Positions 1 to 54,983 of a stretch of 64,000 nt of DNA are shown in pieces. The notes beneath the pieces are model-generated. The model worked only from the letters and a program-made list of their open reading frames with translations. It made no database searches and was not told where the DNA came from. Position 1 is the stretch's first letter, and every line of letters begins with the position of its first letter. The stretch is from Schmidtea polychroa (Eukaryota): assembly GCA_044892525.1 (NCBI GenBank), contig CM097885.1, positions 23,810,001-23,874,000 on the forward strand. The letters are read 5' to 3'. A program made the position numbers and the translations under genes.

Positions 1-1354
1 AGATGTATAATTTTTTCGAAGGGGGATCCGTGGTGGATTAACATTTGTTAACAAACACTATGTAGTATCCTCCGACAATACATAACTTCTTTACATTGAT
101 ATAAATAATTTGTATGGGCGGGCCTTAAGCCAAAGAATTCCATATAAGGATTTTAAATGGGTCACCAATAGAGGAGAGTTAAATAAAATAATTTATTTTT
201 GTGAATCTGTAGATTTGGAAGTACTTCCATTTGGATTTACCTTGAAGGTTGATTTGGAAATTCCTGATGAGATTCACGACAAATTGGATAATTTTCCAGT
301 TGCCGCTGAAAAGATGTGTCCATCTGGCTCTAAAGTTGAGAAGTTGATGCTTACACATCATCCCAAGAAGAACTATGTTCTTCATTGGAGACTTTTCAAG
401 ATTTTTATTTCTCTTGGTGTAAAATTAATTCATGTACATAGGGCAATTCAATTCACAAACGATAATATTTTTAAAGATTACATCGATACCAATACCCGAC
501 TAAGGACGAAATCGAGTAATGCCTTGGATAAAAATTATTATAAGTTATTAAATAATAGCCTTTACGGGAAGACCGTAGAGAATCTGAAAAAACGTCTGAT
601 TTTGCGGCTTTGTAATTCGGCTTCTAAGCTAATTACATATACATCTAAACCAACGTTTAAAAGGACTTATGAAATTGACAATGATTTAGTATCAGTCTGC
701 TAAGATGTTTGTTTAGATAGACCCAGTTACATTGGCCAAACTGTATTGGACTTATCTAAACTTAGAATGTATCAGTTGCAGTATGAAGAGTTACAAAAAT
801 ATCGTAACGAATTCAACTGTAAAAATAATATCGTTGCAGGTGATACGGATTCATTTTCCTTCAAGTTATTAACTTTAAACTTGATGTTCTTTTACCAGTC
901 ATGATCCGTGATAATTTACTAGACACGTCTAATTATGATCCTCTTCATCCTCCTAACCCTGATAAAGTAGGGACCTTGATTCTGTCATTGAGAAGTTCAA
1001 AGACGAGAATAAAGGTCTAAAATATAAGGAATGGGTTTTTCTTAGACCTAAATGTTATAGTTTGTTAGGTGATGACGAGACAAAAAAGCTAAAGGAGTAA
1101 CATTGAAAGGTAGTGACATAAAACATCAGTCGTACCTGGATTGTTATAACACTAATCAAATTTTTTCTATACCACAAACTAAAATAACTAGCAAAAATCA
1201 TCAGCTATTAACCATAAAAAATAAAAAACTGCACTTATCAACGCAGATGATAAAAGGGTTTGGGTGGGGAAAAATAAAAGTTATGCATATGCATCCGGAT
1301 CCATCATACTCGCAACTCAAAGAATCAGCTGATGATATACCGAATGTTATTTAA
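1..1354 (+). pseudogene. Polinton/Maverick/adintovirus-type protein-primed family B DNA polymerase, C-terminal part, disrupted
   Basis: Translation gives GIRGGLTF, motif A YIDINNLYG, motif B YYKLLNNSLYGK, motif C VAGDTDS (~833-853) and KFKDE...EWVFLRPKCYS...AKGV. In-frame stops (~83, 701) and several frameshifts are present. Confidence 0.93.
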
Positions 1355-15147: not shown

Positions 15148-15500
15148 TCATTTCAGTTGTAATTCGTAAATTAAATGTTTTGCAGAAGGTTGACAATTAA
15201 ATGTTTTAGGGCTAAAATGACAACTTTGTCTTCACTGAAAACATTTACACAGAGAGTTACAAAAATTTGTATTCAATATTTGTAGTAACTGTAACTGACT
15301 CTGCTCTACAATTTTCAATTTTAAATGGTAAACCATTTGCATTGATTGATTTTTTACACTCAATAATGCGACATTTTCCTAAATTAAAGAATAAAATAGG
15401 ATATTTGCAACTTCTGTCTATTTCTACTGTCTATTTCTGTCGTTTTCTACTGGGAAATATCATTTGTTGAACATTTGCAATTGTAATTTCTTTTAGACAT
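15148..15500 (-). pseudogene. Compact TBP-like (TATA-binding protein fold) pseudogene, copy A, internally deleted
   Basis: Minus-strand translation: MIFPSRKRQK*..IDRSCKYPILFFNLGKCRIIECKK...PFKIENCRAESVTVTTNI, then a frameshift/deletion, then LCVNVFSEDKVVILALK. It is colinear with copy B at 27339-27759 and with the TBP repeat motifs LIFxSGKxVxxGxK. Confidence 0.7.
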
Positions 15501-16769
15501 TTTATGAAATATTTATGGAATATCAATTATCAAATATTAATATCTAATTTTAAAATGATTTCATTAATTAAATCAATTTAAACAATATCTATTATTTTAT
15601 AATTTGAAAATGGAATTAAGAAACGATGGGATTTTTCAAATTGTTGTTCCAAATATTAGTGTGAAAACTTTATTTGTTAGTAACTTACTTAAATGAATAA
15701 GGATTAGATTAAGAATGAAAATTATAATAAAAATGATATAAGACATTAGAATTTTCTATGAAAATGGCGAAAAATTGGTAACTCAGTATTTCTTACTTTA
15801 TTTATATATTTCTTGTAATGTGATTTTATTTATTTATTTAATTTTTATGGGATGGGACGCCATATTATCATAGAGGCAAAGACAATTTTATTAATTAAGA
15901 TATACATTTCAATAATTTACACTCAGTCAATTTACAGTTTGATTTTTCTCGCATTACTCTTGTAGTGGATAAATGTTGAGTGACACATTTTAAATAAAAC
16001 AATAATAAGTCTGTAAATATTAGGAATTAGTTGAAATGCTAATTAGCTTTGCACCAGCCTAGGACTGGATAAGGAACATATAGCTAGTGGCCAGATTTCG
16101 AAATTGCGTTAGCTGAAATTTTAGTACTTTTTTTCTGTTTTATCAATAAGTTCTTGACTTAAATACATTCCTCTACGATGCCTGGTCTATTGCTGACCAT
16201 TTTTTGTTTAAGGTTTCTTTAATATCAACTCTAAAAAGCACGATAAAGTTGCTAATTTTTGGCAAAATTAATAAATTTAGGATCAGTATTTATACGGATT
16301 TTTCTATACATAAATTAATTTAATATTTTCAACATTTAATTTAATTTAAATATTTATATTTCTTATAGATATCTATTTTTTATATTAATCAATCAAAATA
16401 TTTATATTACAATTTCTTATAAATATATTATTATGATTCTATTGCTAAAAATGCTTATATTATGAATTTTCTACTAGATTCTTTATTATAAGAAAATATT
16501 TCTTTAATTAATTATTATAAAAATTCATTATTATATTTTGATATTTTTGATAACTAATATTATTCAGTAGTTACACTAATCATGATATAAATAGTTAGAA
16601 TTATTAGTCTACCTCCATATATTTTGCTTTTATTATTCCTAAAAATAAAGTTAGCATAACACATGCGTCACAGATTGGTTAATTCTGACTGCTCGCGCTT
16701 GTGCGCACACTTCTTGCATGAGTGTAGACTCGAGTAGTTTAGTTTGGAATTTATGGGTGAATCGATTCT

Positions 16770-21852: not shown

Positions 21853-24591
21853 TAGGGCATTCAAAACCGAGAATTTTTTTGGAACCGGGTTTTCGGTGCT
21901 AGAATGTTCCAGGATCGGGTACCCGGTTCTGGAACCGGTGCTGAAAATGTAAATAAAAAATAATAAATTATAAGTAAAAAAGCATTTTTATTATAAATAA
22001 TTTTTATTATAATAAAGGAACAAACATAAAATCACAGAAATTCAATATATAAATAAACACAATTCAATTTAATAAATAAAAAGCTATTAGCTTCTCTAAA
22101 TGTCCGCTTCCGTTTTAAAATGTGTTCGTAAGAAACTTAAAATGTCTAAACTTTGATCGTTTAGTGATGATCTAATTTTTGTACAAACCATACCACAATT
22201 GGAAAATACGCGCTCTGAATCTACGCTCGTAGGTGGAATGGATAACAAGTTTTCATAACAGGTCTGGAGATTCTTTCCACGATTGCCCTCCAGTTCGAAA
22301 ATAGCCAATTCTTTTTTTATAACATTAGTTATGTCTCTAATTGTTTTTGTTGGTGGGGTAATAGTGGAATTTACATCCTTGGTAATGGCACGGTTAAGCT
22401 TTTCCTTCAACGACAATTCTATTCCAATTTCAACATCATTGTCTGAGTCCGACTCAGATGACTGCTGGCTTCCTTCGAGTGGATTTGATAGGCCAATTAT
22501 CATGTTTGCTATCGCTGACTTTGTCAAATGTTCAAAGTTTAAAACGGAGTCTGGATCCAGTTCCGCATAATCTTGTTTGCTTTTATGTAAATATTGCAGC
22601 AAACTAGCCACTTTCGTTCGTCGTTGATTTATGCGATAACAAAGCGAGTCCTTCATTTGCAGAGCAAATTCACTGCAACCTAGGTTGTTTATCATAAACA
22701 AAATTGTCGTGTCAGCTGTTAATAATGTCGCATCTCGGCGGCATAAAGCTTCTGCAGCTAATTTTATTGGTTCAAGTGTTGTTACTAAATCATTAATCAT
22801 ATTCCACTCTTCGTCTTCGAATGAAAAACTTGAATTGAGATCTATTAAAGATTTTCGAATGTTGTTTTTTAATTTACGAAATCTTTCAAGCATACTATAA
22901 AGGCTATTCCATCTTGTCTTTACATCAATTATCAATTGCAATTCCTTTTCAAATTCTTCTTTGATGTATTTTTGAAGAATTTCGTTTTTAGTTGATGATT
23001 TACGAAATAGCTTGACTACAGTTCTAATTTTGCGGATAAGATCATAAAAATTCTCACACAGTTCTGGTTCATTCGCTTCCAATTCAAGATTAAATTCTTC
23101 GTATTGATCGTCGTCACCATTACCATCACCATCTGAAATACAGTCATCGTCATCGTTACCAGCTGGAGATGGTTTAGGTTTTTGATAAAGGATATCCAAT
23201 ACTGCTAAATGAATTGCGTGAGCGAAGTAGAGTTGCTGCTTACAGGTCAATATTTTCCCAACCTTTTGTATTACAGCAGCACCGTCCGTTGTAATGCAAA
23301 TGATGTCTTCATGCAAATTCAAGCCAAATATTTGCAGCCTTTCTTCAATAAGTTTGATACAGCATTCTGCAGGCAACGATCCTCGAACTCGTACCAGTCC
23401 CAAATTCCAAAATTTACATTTAATGTGCGCATTTATGTTTAAATAGCGTCGGTTCTTACACGAAATCCACTCGTCGAAAGTGAGACTAAATAGCTTTCCT
23501 TGGGATTTCAAACCTTGTAATTCAACCTTATACTTTTCCCGAATTATTTTTCCATATTTCATTACCATGTATCGAATTGTTGTAGCTGATTTTGGAACTT
23601 CAAATCCACGCGCTATTAGCGACTTGCGCATCTCAATTGAACTAATGAAAATTCTGAATGGTAAACCATCGCCGGCTGTCATACGAGATAATACCGCTTC
23701 AAGAGTGTTGTCACGAATGATGAGGTAGTTTGTTAACGTAGAACTGTGTACATTTCTGCGCTTTTCTGGTGGTGCAGTTGATGTTGCTGCTGTACTTACA
23801 GAAGCATATCTCTTCACAGGTTTTACTATGATCTTGTGAATAGATGTAATATGTTTATGGAGGGAACTTGTTGAACCACCTGTTGTCTTCAATGGCTTAT
23901 CACATCGTTTACATTTCGCAAACTCACCAGAATTGTTGTCACGGAGAAAATACTCCCATACTGGAGTTTTTTCAATCAGCCGCTGGCTGCATTCCTCAAA
24001 TTTGATATTTTTTATAGACATGTCTAGTAGAAAAATTTGCGATAATTTTATGTTTTCTATAATAATAAAAATTTTACTTGCCTTAAAGATTAAACTGGAC
24101 ACTTTTGATTGATTTACTTCCGACCTTCCGAGTGACCAATAAAAATAACACTACATAAAAAAATACAATATATATAACCTATATAAAAACTCACATATAA
24201 AAAAAAACACAATATAACTTTAGAGTAAATTTAATACTTTCATACGACTTGTTATAGTTATAAATAAATCAAATTAAATTCAAATTTAATTATTATATTG
24301 ATGTTGTCTTAAAGAGACTGTGAATTATATTTGCAAATGTAATCAAAGGGCTTAATTTTGAACTAATCTTTTAATTCACAGTCATTATTAACGGAAATAT
24401 GTACTTGTATTATTTCGTAATGTAAATATTAAGCTGCGAACAGTATTTTGCTTATTTTAGAATATGAGAAATGCTTGCTCTCAGCACCGAAAACCGGGAA
24501 ATTTTACCAAATTCAATCTCGGTTTTCGGTTCCAGAAAATGTCCGGGTTTCACGGAAACCGGGTTTTGGAATCCCGGTTTTGGATGCCCTA
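21853..24591 (-). mobile_element. Full-length hAT DNA transposon (2739 bp)
   Basis: 17-bp TIRs TAGGGCAT(T/C)CAAAACCG with 1 mismatch. Perfect 8-bp TSD GTAGTTAC at 21845-21852 and 24592-24599. Subterminal AACCGG-type repeats. Confidence 0.97.
22096..24021 (-). CDS. hAT transposase with BED zinc finger
   Basis: VWEYF...CKRC...LHKHITSIH (BED), TFDEW, TDGAA, TRWNS, SERVFS. The likely ATG is at 24021 within the 668-aa ORF. Confidence 0.95.
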   Translation of the reverse strand: MSIKNIKFEECSQRLIEKTPVWEYFLRDNNSGEFAKCKRCDKPLKTTGGSTSSLHKHITSIHKIIVKPVKRYASVSTAATSTAPPEKRRNVHSSTLTNYLIIRDNTLEAVLSRMTAGDGLPFRIFISSIEMRKSLIARGFEVPKSATTIRYMVMKYGKIIREKYKVELQGLKSQGKLFSLTFDEWISCKNRRYLNINAHIKCKFWNLGLVRVRGSLPAECCIKLIEERLQIFGLNLHEDIICITTDGAAVIQKVGKILTCKQQLYFAHAIHLAVLDILYQKPKPSPAGNDDDDCISDGDGNGDDDQYEEFNLELEANEPELCENFYDLIRKIRTVVKLFRKSSTKNEILQKYIKEEFEKELQLIIDVKTRWNSLYSMLERFRKLKNNIRKSLIDLNSSFSFEDEEWNMINDLVTTLEPIKLAAEALCRRDATLLTADTTILFMINNLGCSEFALQMKDSLCYRINQRRTKVASLLQYLHKSKQDYAELDPDSVLNFEHLTKSAIANMIIGLSNPLEGSQQSSESDSDNDVEIGIELSLKEKLNRAITKDVNSTITPPTKTIRDITNVIKKELAIFELEGNRGKNLQTCYENLLSIPPTSVDSERVFSNCGMVCTKIRSSLNDQSLDILSFLRTHFKTEADI

Positions 24592-25689: not shown

Positions 25690-26556
25690 GCTGTAGTTTT
25701 CTGTGGGTTTGTAGGATCCAGCTTTTGGACGTCTAGCAACTGATTTTACTACATCTTACCGGGTGTCGGGTATGATATCGACACAAATGTCTCTTAATTG
25801 CAGGTAAATTTCTCTGATGCTTGCCAAATCATTTTCTGTTTGTAAATCTGAAAAGTGATGTGCCTCCTCTCGAGACACTTAGCGGATCCCAGTTCGCGTA
25901 TCCACGGGGATTTTCTCGTTGCATATTTACCGTATTCTCTCGACGCAATCTTCTCCATCAAACTGGCCTATAATGTATCTTTCGGTCATACCATGGGCAT
26001 GTGATTGGTAATATTTGACTTGTTGACTGAGGCTGACCCGCGTATCGAGTATTAGATCACCATTGACGTGAGTAATGGTTACCTCCACTAACGTCGACTT
26101 AAGGAACTGTCGTAATGTAGCGTAATGCGCAGCTAAATAGATGGTGAGGCTATCTTGTTTTGCACTCGATTGCTGCCGTACAAATGACTTGAAAGTATTT
26201 AAATAATTTTCGTTGACGTCATACGTCCAATTCGGTCGTGATTGTTTCTAGTGTGATAATCACTAGGAGAGAGGTTTCCAAATAGAAGAATATACATCAT
26301 TATTACCAACTTTATATCCCTGGATTGCAATTGTTATATACCAATTTTCATTTTCTTTGAAACTGATTTCGTCAAAAACATAATAAAATTTTGCATATCT
26401 GTTGTTGAACCATGCATGCTGATTACATGCTAGATTTGAATCTATCCGTTTAAAAACATCACCAATAGTTTTAACATCTATCATTGAAAGCGTGCCGCAT
26501 AAGAATTGAAATTGAGTTGGAACCGGTTGTACCATTTCTTTAGGTTTCTTGGTCAT
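25690..26556 (-). pseudogene. Decayed ~290-codon ORF of unknown function
   Basis: The frame of the 97-aa ORF continues through scattered stops (KQSRPNWTYDVNENYLNTFKSF...LASIREIYLQLRDICVDII). Higher GC than flanks. TATAAAAA lies ~30 nt upstream of the ATG and CCAATCAG at ~26609. Confidence 0.55.
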
Positions 26557-26817
26557 CGTGATGATGAAAATGAAATGTTACAGGGTTTTTATACCTTTTG
26601 CCTATCATCCAATCAGATTATAGCATGTCTTTGTTTAAATTGCATGTCATTTGCATTAATGTCGCATTAATGTTTTTATTATAAATAATGTTTTTATTAT
26701 TATTATTATTTCTAATATTATTATTACTATTATTATTTATATTTCTAATATTATTTATATTTGTATTACTATTATTATTATTTCTATTTCTATTATTATT
26801 TATATTTCTATTATTTA

Positions 26818-27265
26818 CTAAAAACAAAACAAAACAAAATAATTCAACATAAAAATAAATTTTGATACAATCTGACTCGAGTGATGATTTCTCAAAGTCT
26901 TCACCAAACACCATTCAACGTATCGTTGATAACGGAAATTGCAGCACCTGCGTCCGAAAAGGCAAGGATCCTCTGGTTTCATTTCTTTCATCACCCTTCC
27001 TATCTTGACATCCATTGGAAAGGTGTTTATTATATCGAATATCCAGATTCGTGTATGGTTGTATACCAAATCCGGAATGATAGCTGCATCTCTATCTTAT
27101 AGAATTTCATTTAATTCTGGATAATAAAAGCATAACCTTTGCAGGACAAATGATTGATATTCATCTGTAAAAAATATATATTAATGTAATAATAAAAAAT
27201 TTGAAATTACCATAATTTTCATCCTCTTTCACTGAGGTGATTGCGGAACTTTGTATGTTGTACAT
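26818..27265 (-). pseudogene. Two-exon small gene of unknown function with one premature stop
   Basis: Exon 1 (27265-27211, MYNIQSSAITSVKEDENY) and a 46-nt GT..AG intron (27210-27165) join in frame to DEYQSFVLQRLCFYYPELNEIL*DRDAAIIPDLVYNHTRIWIFD... Confidence 0.55.
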
Positions 27266-27338: not shown

Positions 27339-27759
27339 TTAGAAATTGACCAATGAAATTATCTCATTTTGAACATTGTCAACAAATTCCCTATACTCCA
27401 GATTTCTCAGCCCCAGCATGACAACCTTTCTACTAGCAAACACGTTGACACATATAGGGTTATATTTTAATATTTTAAACAATTCTGGTTCTAACATACA
27501 ATCACATTTATTTGACATGTTATATTGATACTATGTCCCATATCCATAGTAACGGTAATTGATTGGATTTTAATATTATTTATTCGATATTGTAATTAAG
27601 TAATATCTAAGGGTTACATCCCATGATTCTGCATTTACTTGTCTTGAAAAATATTATCGGTTATTTTCCGCTTCTATCAACAATTTGCTGTGGTTTTCCT
27701 GAGGGGAACCTCATATTCGATACATCAGAATTTCCTCGATAATTTATATTTGCTAACAT
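27339..27759 (-). pseudogene. Compact TBP-like pseudogene, copy B (near full length, ~140 codons)
   Basis: MLANINYRG...FPSGKPQQIVDRSGK*PIIFFKTSKCRIMGC, then a frameshift, then PLDIT*LQYRINNIKIQSITVTMDMGHSIN...MLEPELFKILKYNPICVNVFASRKVVMLGLRNL. KIQ, EPELF and FxSxKVVxxG match TBP repeat 2. Confidence 0.82.
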
Positions 27760-28398
27760 TATTAAATCATTTATGAAAATTAGTCTTTATATAAAAATTG
27801 AGCACGAGTTCATTAAATCACCGAATATAAACAAACAAACAAACAAACAAAAAACACACACACACACATATATATACATATAAATACATATATATACAAA
27901 TAAATAAGAACTTTGATAAAAAAAATATTAATCTAAAATGGTAAGAATTACCACTGTAGTGTTAAATGGAAAGGTAATTATTCTTTAAATCTAATTAACT
28001 TCAAGTACTTACAACTAGCTACTAACAGATAAGTGCCAACAACTAGATCCCAACAAGAAGCAATCAGCTAGGTACCAGATATCAAGTACTATCTCTTAAA
28101 CAACTGGACACACTTACAACAAGCTACTTACAACCAACTAAGTATTCTTCATTGTATTTTATCAAATGCTTTTAAATTAATTTTTTTATTTGTGTTCAAA
28201 AAATCTTTAATTACAATCAGTAGAAAAACCTGACAATTTGATTTATCAAAAACTTAATCATAAGGAATAATTTGGATTTCATGTCGCTATAAATTATTTT
28301 GATATATAAACTTTTTGATGAAGATCCAATTTCATAAAGGTGATTTATCTTTATATGGAATTTATGGTTTTTGAGACATTTTTTTGAGAGAGGAATAG

Positions 28399-30611: not shown

Positions 30612-31994
30612 CTAATTTTTGATAAGTTCTAATAACTTTGAGTATCCTGAGAATTTTAAAGATTTTCTTTTTTTCAGCATCACGTAGAGATCTCTAACAG
30701 TAATTCTTTTCTTAAAATTAAATTTCGGTTTTGCTTCAATGATCTTATTGTCTGGTTGCAATTTCACGGCTTTCCTTTTATTGAAAGCTCTCACAGCTTC
30801 TCTATTAATATTGTTGATTTGCTGCATGTTGTAGATATTTTTACAATTGTTGCGCAACATTTCACGAGCTTTCTCTCTTTCTTGCCGTTCAAAATCTTTA
30901 TCTGCTAGTTTTTCTTTGTATAATTTTTCTTTTTCTTGTCTTTCTATTTCTGAATTTTGATAATTTCTAAACATTTCTAATTTGTTTAATTGCGATCGAG
31001 TGTCAGTTGTCATTTCTAGATTGGGATTTTCTTTAGTAAATTCTTCTTGACAATTATATCGGTGGCGCGTATAATACGCTGTATGGACCAGTAATATTTC
31101 AGTGAAATGGTGAATAGCGTTTTCTAAGTAATTTAACGCATCTGAAGAACAATTTACCGAGTATTTCTCCAACATGATTTCGTACTTTTTTACATTAAGC
31201 ATATGTTCTTCTTTAATACTTTTTTCACCATTTTCTGGGGATTTTGTGATGTTGACAAATATTTTTTGACTTGGTGTTTCTTGTTCATGGTTTTTGTTTA
31301 CCAATTGGTTTTCGTTTATTTGAGTTGATTCCTTTGAAGTTTCTGTAAGCATTTCAATTTGATTTTGAAATTCGAATCTTTGAATTTTAGTTGGTTTTGG
31401 ATTGTTTTCCAATTCTGGGCATATTTTTCTATTTTTGATAGGCTTAGATACTTGAAAATGTGGTTTATGCTGATCAGGATTTGTGGAAGGATTTGATAAA
31501 ATATTTAGCACCTCTGGTTTGCTTGGAATTTGATTTGAATTAGCCAACATTTGATTAGTGGAAATAGTTTTAATTAAATTTTTACTATCATTCTGTATAA
31601 TTGGTAATATCAAAGGCTTTGAAGGGTGATTTGTCTTGATCTTTGAGATATTTATCAATTCTGGTTTGCTTATTTGTTTATTTTTCTTTGATTTTTCGGC
31701 TTTTAGTATTTTTCTTTTTATGGGACTCTGTTGTTGTGAAGGCAATTTTAGGTTGACTCCTTCTATTGAACATTTTTTATTAATCAAATCTGTCATAAAC
31801 TCATTGACATTCTTTTTTAACTTATTAACAAATGAAATTGGTAATTGAAATAATTCTAAATTTCGAAGAAATTGTTCTGGAGTTTCTCTTTTGTCGATAA
31901 AATTTTGTAAGGATCTCTTGATAGATTCTTTAAATTTAAAATTTTCATTTGTTACAATTTTCGATAAGTATATACAGGAATTTTTAGTAGTCAT
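30612..31994 (-). CDS. TAF4: Divergent intronless TAF4-like TFIID subunit (TAFH/NHR1 domain + histone fold + conserved C-terminal domain)
   Basis: N-terminal SLQNFIDKRETPEQFLRNL...LKKNV ~ TAFH (LVQNLLDGKIEAEDFTSRL...LKRSL). Histone fold SSDALNYLENAIHHFTEILL. TDTRSQLNKLE ~ SDVRAQLKFFE. NREAVRAFNKRK ~ NLTALAAIGPRKK. KRITVRDLYVML ~ TRVNLRDLIFCL. Confidence 0.82.
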   Translation of the reverse strand: MTTKNSCIYLSKIVTNENFKFKESIKRSLQNFIDKRETPEQFLRNLELFQLPISFVNKLKKNVNEFMTDLINKKCSIEGVNLKLPSQQQSPIKRKILKAEKSKKNKQISKPELINISKIKTNHPSKPLILPIIQNDSKNLIKTISTNQMLANSNQIPSKPEVLNILSNPSTNPDQHKPHFQVSKPIKNRKICPELENNPKPTKIQRFEFQNQIEMLTETSKESTQINENQLVNKNHEQETPSQKIFVNITKSPENGEKSIKEEHMLNVKKYEIMLEKYSVNCSSDALNYLENAIHHFTEILLVHTAYYTRHRYNCQEEFTKENPNLEMTTDTRSQLNKLEMFRNYQNSEIERQEKEKLYKEKLADKDFERQEREKAREMLRNNCKNIYNMQQINNINREAVRAFNKRKAVKLQPDNKIIEAKPKFNFKKRITVRDLYVMLKKRKSLKFSGYSKLLELIKN

Positions 31995-38273: not shown

Positions 38274-39179
38274 TTAATATTTTGGTAAAATAATTTTGAC
38301 ATTTTTGTGCAGAATCTTAGAAAAGGAGGCGATATTCGATTTTGACAATCCAATTGAATCTGCTAGCAATTTTGCGTCTACGTCGACATTTTTTAAGTCA
38401 CAGACCAATTGAATGCAACATACCGCAATCAAAACGCTTCCTTTAATGCGAAATTCACTAATTTCACTTACATTTTTTACTGCTTCTTTTACAAGCTTTT
38501 CTATTTTGAAATCCGTCACGTCTAAATAATATAAAAATCTGCCAACGAGTAAATCTGGCTTGATTTCACGCGTTGGTCGTTTCAATGCAGTTTGGATAAG
38601 TTTTAATAACTTTTTGAATTTCTTTTCATCAACCAGTGGACATTCGTTTAATATTTCTTTCGGCAGTCTCGGAACTTCATTGTCTACGCAAGCCAAATAT
38701 AGACATACGCAATTCAAGGTCGCTTTGTTTCGCTTGACACAGGCCTCTGATTTTGTAATTTCATGGAGTAGAGATACAGCTCGCGAATAAACATTTCTAT
38801 CTACTTTTATTCTTTCACACAAATCTGCGATTTGTCGTTTCTGGGACGCCAATGACACTTCTTTGCTACTCTTAGTTGAAAGGAATTTAAATTTCGAATT
38901 TCCATTTTCATCTAGAAATCTGAGGTTAAAACCTGTTTGAACGGCAGTCGATGTTTGTCCATCTGTTTCTGACGTTTCCACCTCTCCGACTCGACAAGCG
39001 TCATGTCCATCCGTTCCATCGGATGCGAATGTTCTCCATTCACTAGAAGGATCAATCGCCCGTTCAACTACAACCAGACCACAAGCGGAACATATCATAT
39101 CTCCAGTTCGACAATCAGTTATTAGAACTCTATTTGGATGATATTTACAATGAACCATTTTCATATTTTCATTATTCAT
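38274..39179 (-). CDS. TFIIB: Transcription initiation factor IIB-like, intronless, copy 1
   Basis: Zn ribbon CKYHP-x-CSACGLVV, B-reader IDPSSEWRTF...DACRVG, two divergent cyclin-like repeats (CLYLAC...VPRLPKEI). Confidence 0.93.
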   Translation of the reverse strand: MNNENMKMVHCKYHPNRVLITDCRTGDMICSACGLVVVERAIDPSSEWRTFASDGTDGHDACRVGEVETSETDGQTSTAVQTGFNLRFLDENGNSKFKFLSTKSSKEVSLASQKRQIADLCERIKVDRNVYSRAVSLLHEITKSEACVKRNKATLNCVCLYLACVDNEVPRLPKEILNECPLVDEKKFKKLLKLIQTALKRPTREIKPDLLVGRFLYYLDVTDFKIEKLVKEAVKNVSEISEFRIKGSVLIAVCCIQLVCDLKNVDVDAKLLADSIGLSKSNIASFSKILHKNVKIILPKY

Positions 39180-46180: not shown

Positions 46181-47086
46181 TTAATATTTTGGTAAAATAA
46201 TTTTGACATTTTTGTGCAGAATCTTAGAAAAGGAGGCGATATTCGATTTTGACAATCCAATTGAATCTGCTAGCAATTTTGCGTCTACGTCGACATTTTT
46301 CAAGTCACAGACCAATTGAATGCAACATACCGCAATCAAAACGCTTCCTTTAATGCGAAATTCACTAATTTCACTTACATTTTTTACTGCTTCTTTTACA
46401 AGCTTTTCTATTTTGAAATCCGTCACGTCTAAATAATATAAAAATCTGCCAACGAGTAAATCTGGCTTGATTTCACGCGTTGGTCGTTTCAATGCAGTTT
46501 GGATAAGTTTTAATAACTTTTTGAATTTCTTTTCATCAACCAGTGGACATTCGTTTAATATTTCTTTCGGCAGTCTCGGAACTTCATTGTCTACGCAAGC
46601 CAAATATAGACATACGCAATTCAAGTTCGCTTTGTTTCGCTTGACACAGGCCTCTGATTTTGTAATTTCATGGAGTAGAGATACAGCTCGCGAATAAACA
46701 TTTCTATCTACTTTTATTCTTTCACACAAATCTGCGATTTGTCGTTTCTGGGACGCCAATGACACTTCTTTGCTACTCTTAGTTGAAAGGAATTTAAATT
46801 TCGAATTTCCATTTTCATCTAGAAATCTGAGGTTAAAACCTGTTTGAACGGCAGTCGATGTTTGTCCATCTGTTTCTGACGTTTCCACCTCTCCAACTCG
46901 ACAAGCGTCATGTCCATCCGTTCCATCGGATGCGAATGTTCTCCATTCACTAGAAGGATCAATCGCCCGTTCAACTACAACCAGACCACAAGCGGAACAT
47001 ATCATATCTCCAGTTCGACAATCAGTTATTAGAACTCTATTTGGATGATATTTACAATGAACCATTTTCATATTGTCATTATTCAT
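46181..47086 (-). CDS. TFIIB: Transcription initiation factor IIB-like, intronless, copy 2
   Basis: As copy 1. Differs by E4D and KATL->KANL. Confidence 0.93.
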   Translation of the reverse strand: MNNDNMKMVHCKYHPNRVLITDCRTGDMICSACGLVVVERAIDPSSEWRTFASDGTDGHDACRVGEVETSETDGQTSTAVQTGFNLRFLDENGNSKFKFLSTKSSKEVSLASQKRQIADLCERIKVDRNVYSRAVSLLHEITKSEACVKRNKANLNCVCLYLACVDNEVPRLPKEILNECPLVDEKKFKKLLKLIQTALKRPTREIKPDLLVGRFLYYLDVTDFKIEKLVKEAVKNVSEISEFRIKGSVLIAVCCIQLVCDLKNVDVDAKLLADSIGLSKSNIASFSKILHKNVKIILPKY

Positions 47087-54077: not shown

Positions 54078-54983
54078 TTAATATTTTGGTAAAATAATTT
54101 TGACATTTTTGTGCAGAATCTTAGAAAAGGAGGCGATATTCGATTTTGACAATCCAATTGAATCTGCTAGCAATTTTGCGTCTACGTCGACATTTTTCAA
54201 GTCACAGACCAATTGAATGCAACATACCGCAATCAAAACGCTTCCTTTAATGCGAAATTCACTAATTTCACTTACATTTTTTACTGCTTCTTTTACAAGC
54301 TTTTCTATTTTGAAATCCGTCACGTCTAAATAATATAAAAATCTGCCAACGAGTAAATCTGGCTTGATTTCACGCGTTGGTCGTTTCAATGCAGTTTGGA
54401 TAAGTTTTAATAACTTTTTGAATTTCTTTTCATCAACCAGTGGACATTCGTTTAATATTTCTTTCGGCAGTCTCGGAACTTCATTGTCTACGCAAGCCAA
54501 ATATAGACATACGCAATTCAAGTTCGCTTTGTTTCGCTTGACACAGGCCTCTGATTTTGTAATTTCATGGAGTAGAGATACAGCTCGCGAATAAACATTT
54601 CTATCTACTTTTATTCTTTCACACAAATCTGCGATTTGTCGTTTCTGGGACGCCAATGACACTTCTTTGCTACTCTTAGTTGAAAGGAATTTAAATTTCG
54701 AATTTCCATTTTCATCTAGAAATCTGAGGTTAAAACCTGTTTGAACGGCAGTCGATGTTTGTCCATCTGTTTCTGACGTTTCCACCTCTCCAACTCGACA
54801 AGCGTCATGTCCATCCGTTCCATCGGATGCGAATGTTCTCCATTCACTAGAAGGATCAATCGCCCGTTCAACTACAACCAGACCACAAGCGGAACATATC
54901 ATATCTCCAGTTCGACAATCAGTTATTAGAACTCTATTTGGATGATATTTACAATGAACCATTTTCATATTGTCATTATTCAT
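54078..54983 (-). CDS. TFIIB: Transcription initiation factor IIB-like, intronless, copy 3
   Basis: Protein identical to copy 2. Confidence 0.93.
   Translation of the reverse strand: MNNDNMKMVHCKYHPNRVLITDCRTGDMICSACGLVVVERAIDPSSEWRTFASDGTDGHDACRVGEVETSETDGQTSTAVQTGFNLRFLDENGNSKFKFLSTKSSKEVSLASQKRQIADLCERIKVDRNVYSRAVSLLHEITKSEACVKRNKANLNCVCLYLACVDNEVPRLPKEILNECPLVDEKKFKKLLKLIQTALKRPTREIKPDLLVGRFLYYLDVTDFKIEKLVKEAVKNVSEISEFRIKGSVLIAVCCIQLVCDLKNVDVDAKLLADSIGLSKSNIASFSKILHKNVKIILPKY

Follow-up and report, generated by a model that had tools for sequence, protein, structure and literature searches.

What are the two broken genes resembling the TATA-binding protein (TBP) that lie on the minus strand of a 64,000-nucleotide stretch of the Schmidtea polychroa genome (assembly GCA_044892525.1, contig CM097885.1, positions 23,810,001 to 23,874,000; hereafter the window)? 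A sequence-only reading of this stretch had described them as diverged, decaying pseudogenes of a minimal TBP-like type, more probably the cargo of a mobile element than host genes. We found that both are dead and that they derive from a TBP-like gene which belongs to a clade of Maverick/Polinton elements. With a probability that we put at about 0.7, judging from sequences and a structure model, the intact protein would be the elements' own late-gene transcription factor, binding an 8-bp box, YATAAACR, that precedes the capsid, packaging and integrase genes.

Both pseudogenes are real and both are broken. Copy 1 (27339..27759, minus strand) runs from an ATG at its 27759 end to a stop codon at its 27339 end with the reading spread over three frames; the codons at 27663-27661 and 27598-27596 are in-frame stops, the frame changes near 27615 and again near 27521, and a gap of three codons lies near 27476. 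It matches a natural intact copy in three pieces with 84-90% amino acid identity (tblastn, E 1e-58), and the nearest family copies with ~90% DNA identity (23-26 mismatches and 17-18 gap positions). Copy 2 (15198..15475, minus strand) has an internal deletion, with ~27 codons missing, and a single stop at 15433-15431. It aligns with residues 12-77 (46%) and 105-126 (50%) of the intact protein with a combined E of 6e-16. Its other relatives in the genome are only 68-83% identical in DNA, and it belongs to an older, more distant subfamily than copy 1. The sequence-only reading had located the two copies within 27339..27759, which is correct for copy 1 and wrong for copy 2; of the motifs it quoted, the shared ones are present but EPELF survives in copy 1 alone.

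Intact relatives of the gene are abundant. The genome was searched with DNA (40 of 1383 first-look candidates scored) and with protein (150 of 4175 candidates scored), candidates not being copy numbers in either search. The 39 other scored DNA matches are 90-91% identical to copy 1, and an open frame of 145 codons is present in 17 of the 19 loci fetched. All 150 scored protein matches are stop-free and 99-100% identical. A homologue search returned 109 of 113 candidates, at 37-97% identity and mostly 144-190 amino acids (aa) long; a profile search gave 61 representatives with E up to 1e-30. In metagenomic data, 182 relatives were found among 381 stretches and the best 80 loci were kept for counts. 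Across relatives the gene bears the mark of purifying selection: the ratio of nonsynonymous to synonymous substitution rates (dN/dS) is 0.05-0.44 in 70 of 70 unsaturated pairs, which are not independent of each other, and 0.05 between two subfamilies within the genome. The picture of a family of decaying cargo was therefore not borne out, as only the two window copies are dead.

The relationships of the family were analyzed with a quick tree, whose 84 rows were picked by hand from a larger set of loci and proteins. The 71 family rows were split from 13 rows comprising the host TBP and TBP-related factors (TRF), other cellular and archaeal-type TBPs and one giant-virus TBP, with a support of 99 in the SH-like approximate likelihood ratio test (SH-aLRT). 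Deeper family members are longer and retain helices H1 and H2 by sequence, so the minimal 145-aa form is probably derived. Scans of viral contigs revealed no family member and no relatives of the element ATPases or capsid protein, the sole TBP found there being one ordinary giant-virus TBP. Just to the left of the window (L170, window-relative -9332 to -8937), a Maverick carries an intact TBP-like protein only 60% identical to that of the main family together with an ATPase and a capsid protein 96% identical to it; this mismatch suggests exchange of an early-gene module between subfamilies.

The elements bearing the gene are Maverick/Polinton elements. Three of five loci extended to 40 kb proved to contain an entire element, 19-20 kb long and bounded by terminal inverted repeats (TIRs); the 6-bp target duplication that flanks it is perfect in two of these loci, while a single base differs in the other. 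Their polymerase is of the protein-primed family B (pPolB), encoded by a 1089-aa open reading frame (ORF) that is 59% identical to a broken pPolB of another Maverick in the window (11-1293, plus strand), a remnant matching DNA_pol_B_2 with E 4.6e-16. The integrase combines an rve domain (E 1e-5, under the curated cut-off) with a chromodomain, and the packaging ATPase is A32-like (Pox_A32, 30.5 bits compared to a cut-off of 22.8). The double-jelly-roll major capsid protein is 406 aa long, and its model (predicted local distance difference test 77) matches capsid proteins of iridovirus, PBCV-1 and virophage (Foldseek E 1.7e-16). Candidates for the minor capsid protein and the cysteine protease were placed by position and by weak similarity to a second Maverick family (E 2e-4 and 5e-6). 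A mobile-element rather than host origin, as favoured from sequence alone, thus held once intact copies were located and their flanks compared, the Maverick context being recurrent. The elements also encode an ORF with weak resemblance to Bcl-2 (E 0.095) and another with a RING finger (E 1e-10) (L026:8200-8508 and L028:3783-4271). The integrase gene contains a GT..AG intron-like (ATT)n insert (L027:2815-2916), whose length varies from 39 to 123 nt among five copies and is divisible by three in each of them; if spliced, it would imply nuclear transcription by RNA polymerase II (Pol II).

The intact protein is 145 aa long and the saddle fold spans all 145 residues in the structure model. Pfam TBP (PF00352) matched it in two stretches with 57.1 bits, compared to a curated cut-off of 22.9, a score well out of reach of chance, and the fold model agrees; both repeats of the saddle are present, the second being complete with its EPELFP stirrup. 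Identity to cellular TBPs is ~25%, compared to 37-97% to element-borne relatives. In the model of this genome's protein the first repeat is without helix H1 and the long H2; the shortened first repeat and the absent N-terminal extension noticed in the broken copies are seen in natural intact copies as well. The DNA face is polar or charged. Three of the four intercalating phenylalanines are kept (F38, F97 and F113), the column of yeast F99 being occupied by proline in 93 of 94 sequences within an alignment region that contains deletions. Of the base-contacting asparagines, the equivalent of yeast N69 is kept in 88/94 sequences and that of N159 is a serine in 90/94. The acidic TFIIB stirrup residues (yeast E186 and E188) are present as E93 (91/94) and E95 (93/94), which is a matter of residue presence only. 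As far as sequence and model tell, the protein belongs to the TBP fold family as a diverged representative that fails three canonical features.

A recurring YATAAACR box was found in the upstream regions of element genes. When near-duplicates were removed (reducing ATPase genes from 26 to 22), it was present upstream of 21/22 ATPase, 6/6 capsid, 5/5 small GGF-motif and 9/15 integrase genes; the opposite strand gave 0 and 100 shuffles gave a maximum of 3. The distance between the box and the ATPase ATG is 31-49 nt in 20 of 22 cases. The TBP-like genes themselves have no box (0/50), and 29 of these 50 are preceded by the canonical TATAWAW (mean of 12.1 and maximum of 20 in shuffles), which was found upstream of 0/6 capsid and 1/15 integrase genes; the canonical TATA sequence for comparison with the box is TATAAAAG. 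CCAAT was not enriched before the TBP-like gene (15/50, compared to a mean of 10.1 and a maximum of 19 in shuffles). Over the virion modules of 19 loci (70.8 kb, some loci being near-duplicates), 105 boxes are in sense and 0 in antisense orientation, and pPolB contains 1 box in 18.7 kb. Inside ORFs the two possible frames are used equally (38 and 36 boxes) and 64 sites lie outside ORFs, indicating that the box is a nucleotide signal. When chance occurrence was tested over a whole locus, an AT-rich stretch of 10 kb, the result was only marginal (8 sites, with 10 of 200 shuffles as high): the box signal resides in position and strand.

The content of the elements designates a candidate reader for this box. 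Among the 80 metagenomic loci, the ATPase was found in 26, the integrase in 18, the capsid gene in 12 and pPolB in 8; one or more core genes are present in 36, most of the others being short contigs, and gene order is variable. When this family is compared with the deep lineage, TBP is the only common gene besides the polymerase, integrase, ATPase and capsid genes, and hence the best element-encoded candidate reader.

Vestiges of this organization persist in the window. An ordinary TATA-type sequence, TATATAAAG, can be read on the minus strand at 27785..27793, starting 34 nt upstream of the copy 1 ATG, and would be the host-type early promoter of the TBP-like gene. An orphaned YATAAACR box is found at 27826..27833 (plus strand), where it precedes the packaging ATPase gene in intact elements; that gene is missing here and element homology stops at 27841. 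Around copy 1, the element retains only the TBP-like gene and two adjoining ORFs, remnants of orf98 (26863..27147, minus strand; tblastn 48%, E 6e-28), a small ORF neighbouring the TBP-like gene in the element, and of orf136 (26251..26562, minus strand), which has no Pfam family and adjoins the TBP-like gene in 21 of the 80 metagenomic loci. Orf136 was ruled out as reader of the box, being undetected in the deep lineage. Beside copy 2, a 5' remnant of the packaging ATPase gene (15610..15678, plus strand; tblastn 70% over 23 aa, E 4e-5) stands head-to-head with the TBP-like gene, in the same layout as in intact elements. Contigs from three presumed RNA runs and one further run cover the stretch together with its intergenic part, so this coverage is uninformative on transcription.

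The box was also looked for in Mavericks devoid of the gene. A second Maverick family in the genome (complete copy of 15.1 kb, 27.5% GC) gave no match to the TBP-like profile at full sensitivity and has the box in 0/10 upstream regions. Five outside loci were chosen by ATPase alone. One carries a TBP-like gene; of its 5 other genes, 3 have the full box upstream and a fourth has ATAAAC there. The remaining four gave no TBP-like match in the contig or in three genomes searched, and have the box in 0/19 upstream regions. At the right end of the window, a TIR-bounded Maverick without TBP-like gene (61121 to beyond 64000, window-relative 74888) is the second family again and provides no independent control; the 145 scored genome matches of the second-family ATPase are all 99-100% identical. 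Two TBP-less Mavericks (L184:4460-9190 and L186) were found in a bacterial metagenome-assembled genome, probably as host DNA; recurring TATAAGAC/TAGACGACG-like words upstream of several of their genes are possibly a different promoter signal.

We propose the following scheme. An ordinary TATA promoter would allow host TBP/TFIID and Pol II to transcribe the TBP-like gene, and the element protein would then bind the minor groove at YATAAACR. Reading of the box would be shared between the repeats: the TATA-like 5' half would fall to the conserved second repeat and the AAC-purine 3' half to the remodelled first one, an orientation that we take as an assumption. In this arrangement, Arg44 and Asn6 are predicted to face the 3' half. 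The second repeat is assigned to the TATA-like half because, according to PMC12529657, a T at the first TATA position is preferred through P191. Host TFIIB and Pol II would be recruited via the kept acidic stirrup. H1 and H2 of the first TBP repeat are docking sites for TFIIA, TAF1, BRF1 and Mot1, and their loss would free the protein from these factors. The result would be an early-to-late switch for the virion module. That a widespread Maverick clade has two-phase, virus-like transcription, driven by one tiny, self-sufficient TBP of altered specificity that has its own TATA variant and connects directly to host TFIIB and Pol II, seems to us a little better than an even chance.

Several observations weigh against this scheme. 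Canonical TATA bending is not guaranteed because the equivalents of F99 and N159 are replaced, by proline and serine respectively, and the protein-atlas recognition score is under threshold (2077). A few boxes fall within pPolB, no box lies directly upstream of the protease gene in the one copy mapped, and no covariation was seen between the first box base (C/T) and DNA-face residues. In 20 of 22 ATPase upstream regions the box is at the same time a match to the forkhead core RYAAAYA. The label 'late' is drawn from gene content alone. As the 80 metagenomic loci were chosen by TBP and include near-duplicates, counts made on them overstate independence. The negative controls come from only about four lineages. 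Each of the four outside loci is a partial contig, and the GC richness of three of them (51-56%) lowers the chance rate of the box.

The forkhead match raises the question of a host reader, such as a forkhead protein, the host TBP or a TRF paralogue, in which case the element protein would have another job and its co-occurrence with the box would reflect shared ancestry. ATAAACA does fit the forkhead core, divergent intronless TBP paralogues exist in the genome, and the gene and the box mark one clade, making co-inheritance possible. However, the 105:0 strand bias and the narrow distance suit a core promoter better than an enhancer site. Moreover, a G as last box base, found in 3/22 and 4/9 sites, breaks the forkhead core, GTAAACA is rare (2/22), and the TBP-less Maverick family in the same host is without the box; we consider a host reader unlikely. 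Slightly less probable still is that the protein acts as a repressor or decoy, silencing virion genes in integrated copies or titrating the host transcription machinery. Such a role would suit a protein that keeps the TFIIB stirrup but has lost one intercalating phenylalanine and the co-activator-contacting helices, and hundreds of integrated copies are tolerated in a living host. On the other hand, no core promoter other than the box can be recognised before most virion genes, implying that some activator is needed, and the box stands at an activating TATA distance.

A signal acting in RNA, either a variant poly(A) signal of the upstream gene or a translation element unconnected to the TBP-like protein, is improbable. 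TATAAA and CATAAA are known poly(A)-signal variants and many boxes are near the end of the upstream gene, but the base before ATAAAC is never A in the 22 ATPase sites, so that AATAAA is avoided, the C is fixed, and the box is retained where the upstream gene points away in the head-to-head layout. Last, the copies could stem from retrocopying or recent capture of a host TBP or TRF and be carried passively; the sequence-only reading had named retrocopies of one spliced host TRF gene as an outcome that would refute it. This idea can hardly be sustained. It could draw on the intronless gene and on the spliced and intronless TBP paralogues of the host, and is refuted for this genome by the fixed Maverick context, purifying selection and a tree position apart from the genome's own TBP/TRF genes (SH-aLRT 99), in line with the higher identity to element-borne than to cellular proteins.

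The late-factor reading can be placed among known systems. With cellular and archaeal TBPs and TRFs (PF00352), the Maverick protein shares the saddle fold, the complete second repeat with its EPELFP stirrup, three of four intercalating phenylalanines and the first asparagine. In contrast to cellular TBPs, it is ~30 residues shorter, has a first repeat without H1 and long H2 and a polar or charged DNA face, forms its own clade and is encoded by a mobile element. By analogy, it most likely works like the TBP mimics of beta- and gammaherpesviruses (ORF24 of Kaposi's sarcoma-associated herpesvirus, BcRF1 of Epstein-Barr virus), which act on TATT late promoters, without being a member of that system; common features, in the part of PMC12529657 consulted, are a virus-encoded TBP fold, a polar DNA face and a variant TATA before structural genes. 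ORF24 is described there as a 752-aa protein that binds Pol II directly within a six-protein complex and has all four phenylalanines without the acidic TFIIB residues. The Maverick protein, in contrast, consists of nothing but a 145-aa core in which the acidic residues are retained, no conserved partner gene was detected, and no herpesvirus protein is among its closest fold matches. TBP homologues of Nucleocytoviricota, mirusviruses and nimaviruses also have a viral TBP fold and appear as fold matches at 7-20% identity. These viruses are large and many have their own RNA polymerase, whereas TBP-bearing elements are 15-25 kb and show no RNA polymerase gene, and the single giant-virus TBP included in the tree falls with the cellular TBPs, apart from the Maverick family. 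With Maverick/Polinton elements at large (adintoviruses, polintoviruses), the elements share pPolB, integrase, packaging ATPase, a protease-like ORF, a double-jelly-roll capsid, TIRs and the 6-bp duplication. As a type, the feature would be a virus-like TBP paired with a late promoter of its own, in this case within Mavericks.

That some Polinton-like element carries a TBP had already been noticed: in PMC8502044 (and its preprint), on MELD viruses, the label 'TBP' occurs in the legend of Fig. 5 for one element; a text search of the supplement gave no 'TBP' or 'TATA'. In the part of PMC8097293 consulted, eight core genes are listed for vertebrate Mavericks and TBP is absent from them. The words TBP, TATA and promoter are all absent from PMC11161782, and the sole match in PMC12220804 is an author name. 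A search of the literature on Polinton/Maverick with TBP or promoters, which left Repbase and subscription papers outside, found no account of this family or box.

The genome also holds spliced TBP and TFIIB-family genes, and its divergent intronless TBP paralogues are at L135, L137 and L138. Three near-identical, intronless TFIIB-like genes of 301 aa (Pfam TFIIB and zinc ribbon) are present on the minus strand of the window, at 38274-39179, 46181-47086 and 54078-54983, in a tandem unit of ~7.9 kb that each time includes a 330-bp Maverick pPolB fragment; more copies occur further along contig C1 and on contig C3. They look like a host paralogue expansion. An intronless 460-aa ORF (30612-31994, minus strand) has a weak TAF4 match (E 0.024) and, together with the intronless TBP paralogues, is possibly part of a second, specialised set of general transcription factors. 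An apparently intact hAT transposase ORF is found at 22096-24021 (minus strand).

It has long been asked whether animal Mavericks are simply transposons or rather viruses that pass through a real particle stage, and the papers found contain no description of how Maverick capsid genes are switched on. A conserved element-encoded TBP and a matching 8-bp box offer a concrete switch that can be tested with a 145-aa protein and one oligonucleotide. As a natural, pared-down TBP of altered specificity, the protein would be useful to ask which parts of TBP suffice for Pol II initiation, and the box may serve as a marker of virion-module genes and their starts in unannotated elements. If the proposal is true, a single gene would do in these elements what takes six genes in the herpesvirus late system, and this would provide sequence evidence that Maverick 'transposons' retain a regulated virion-forming stage.
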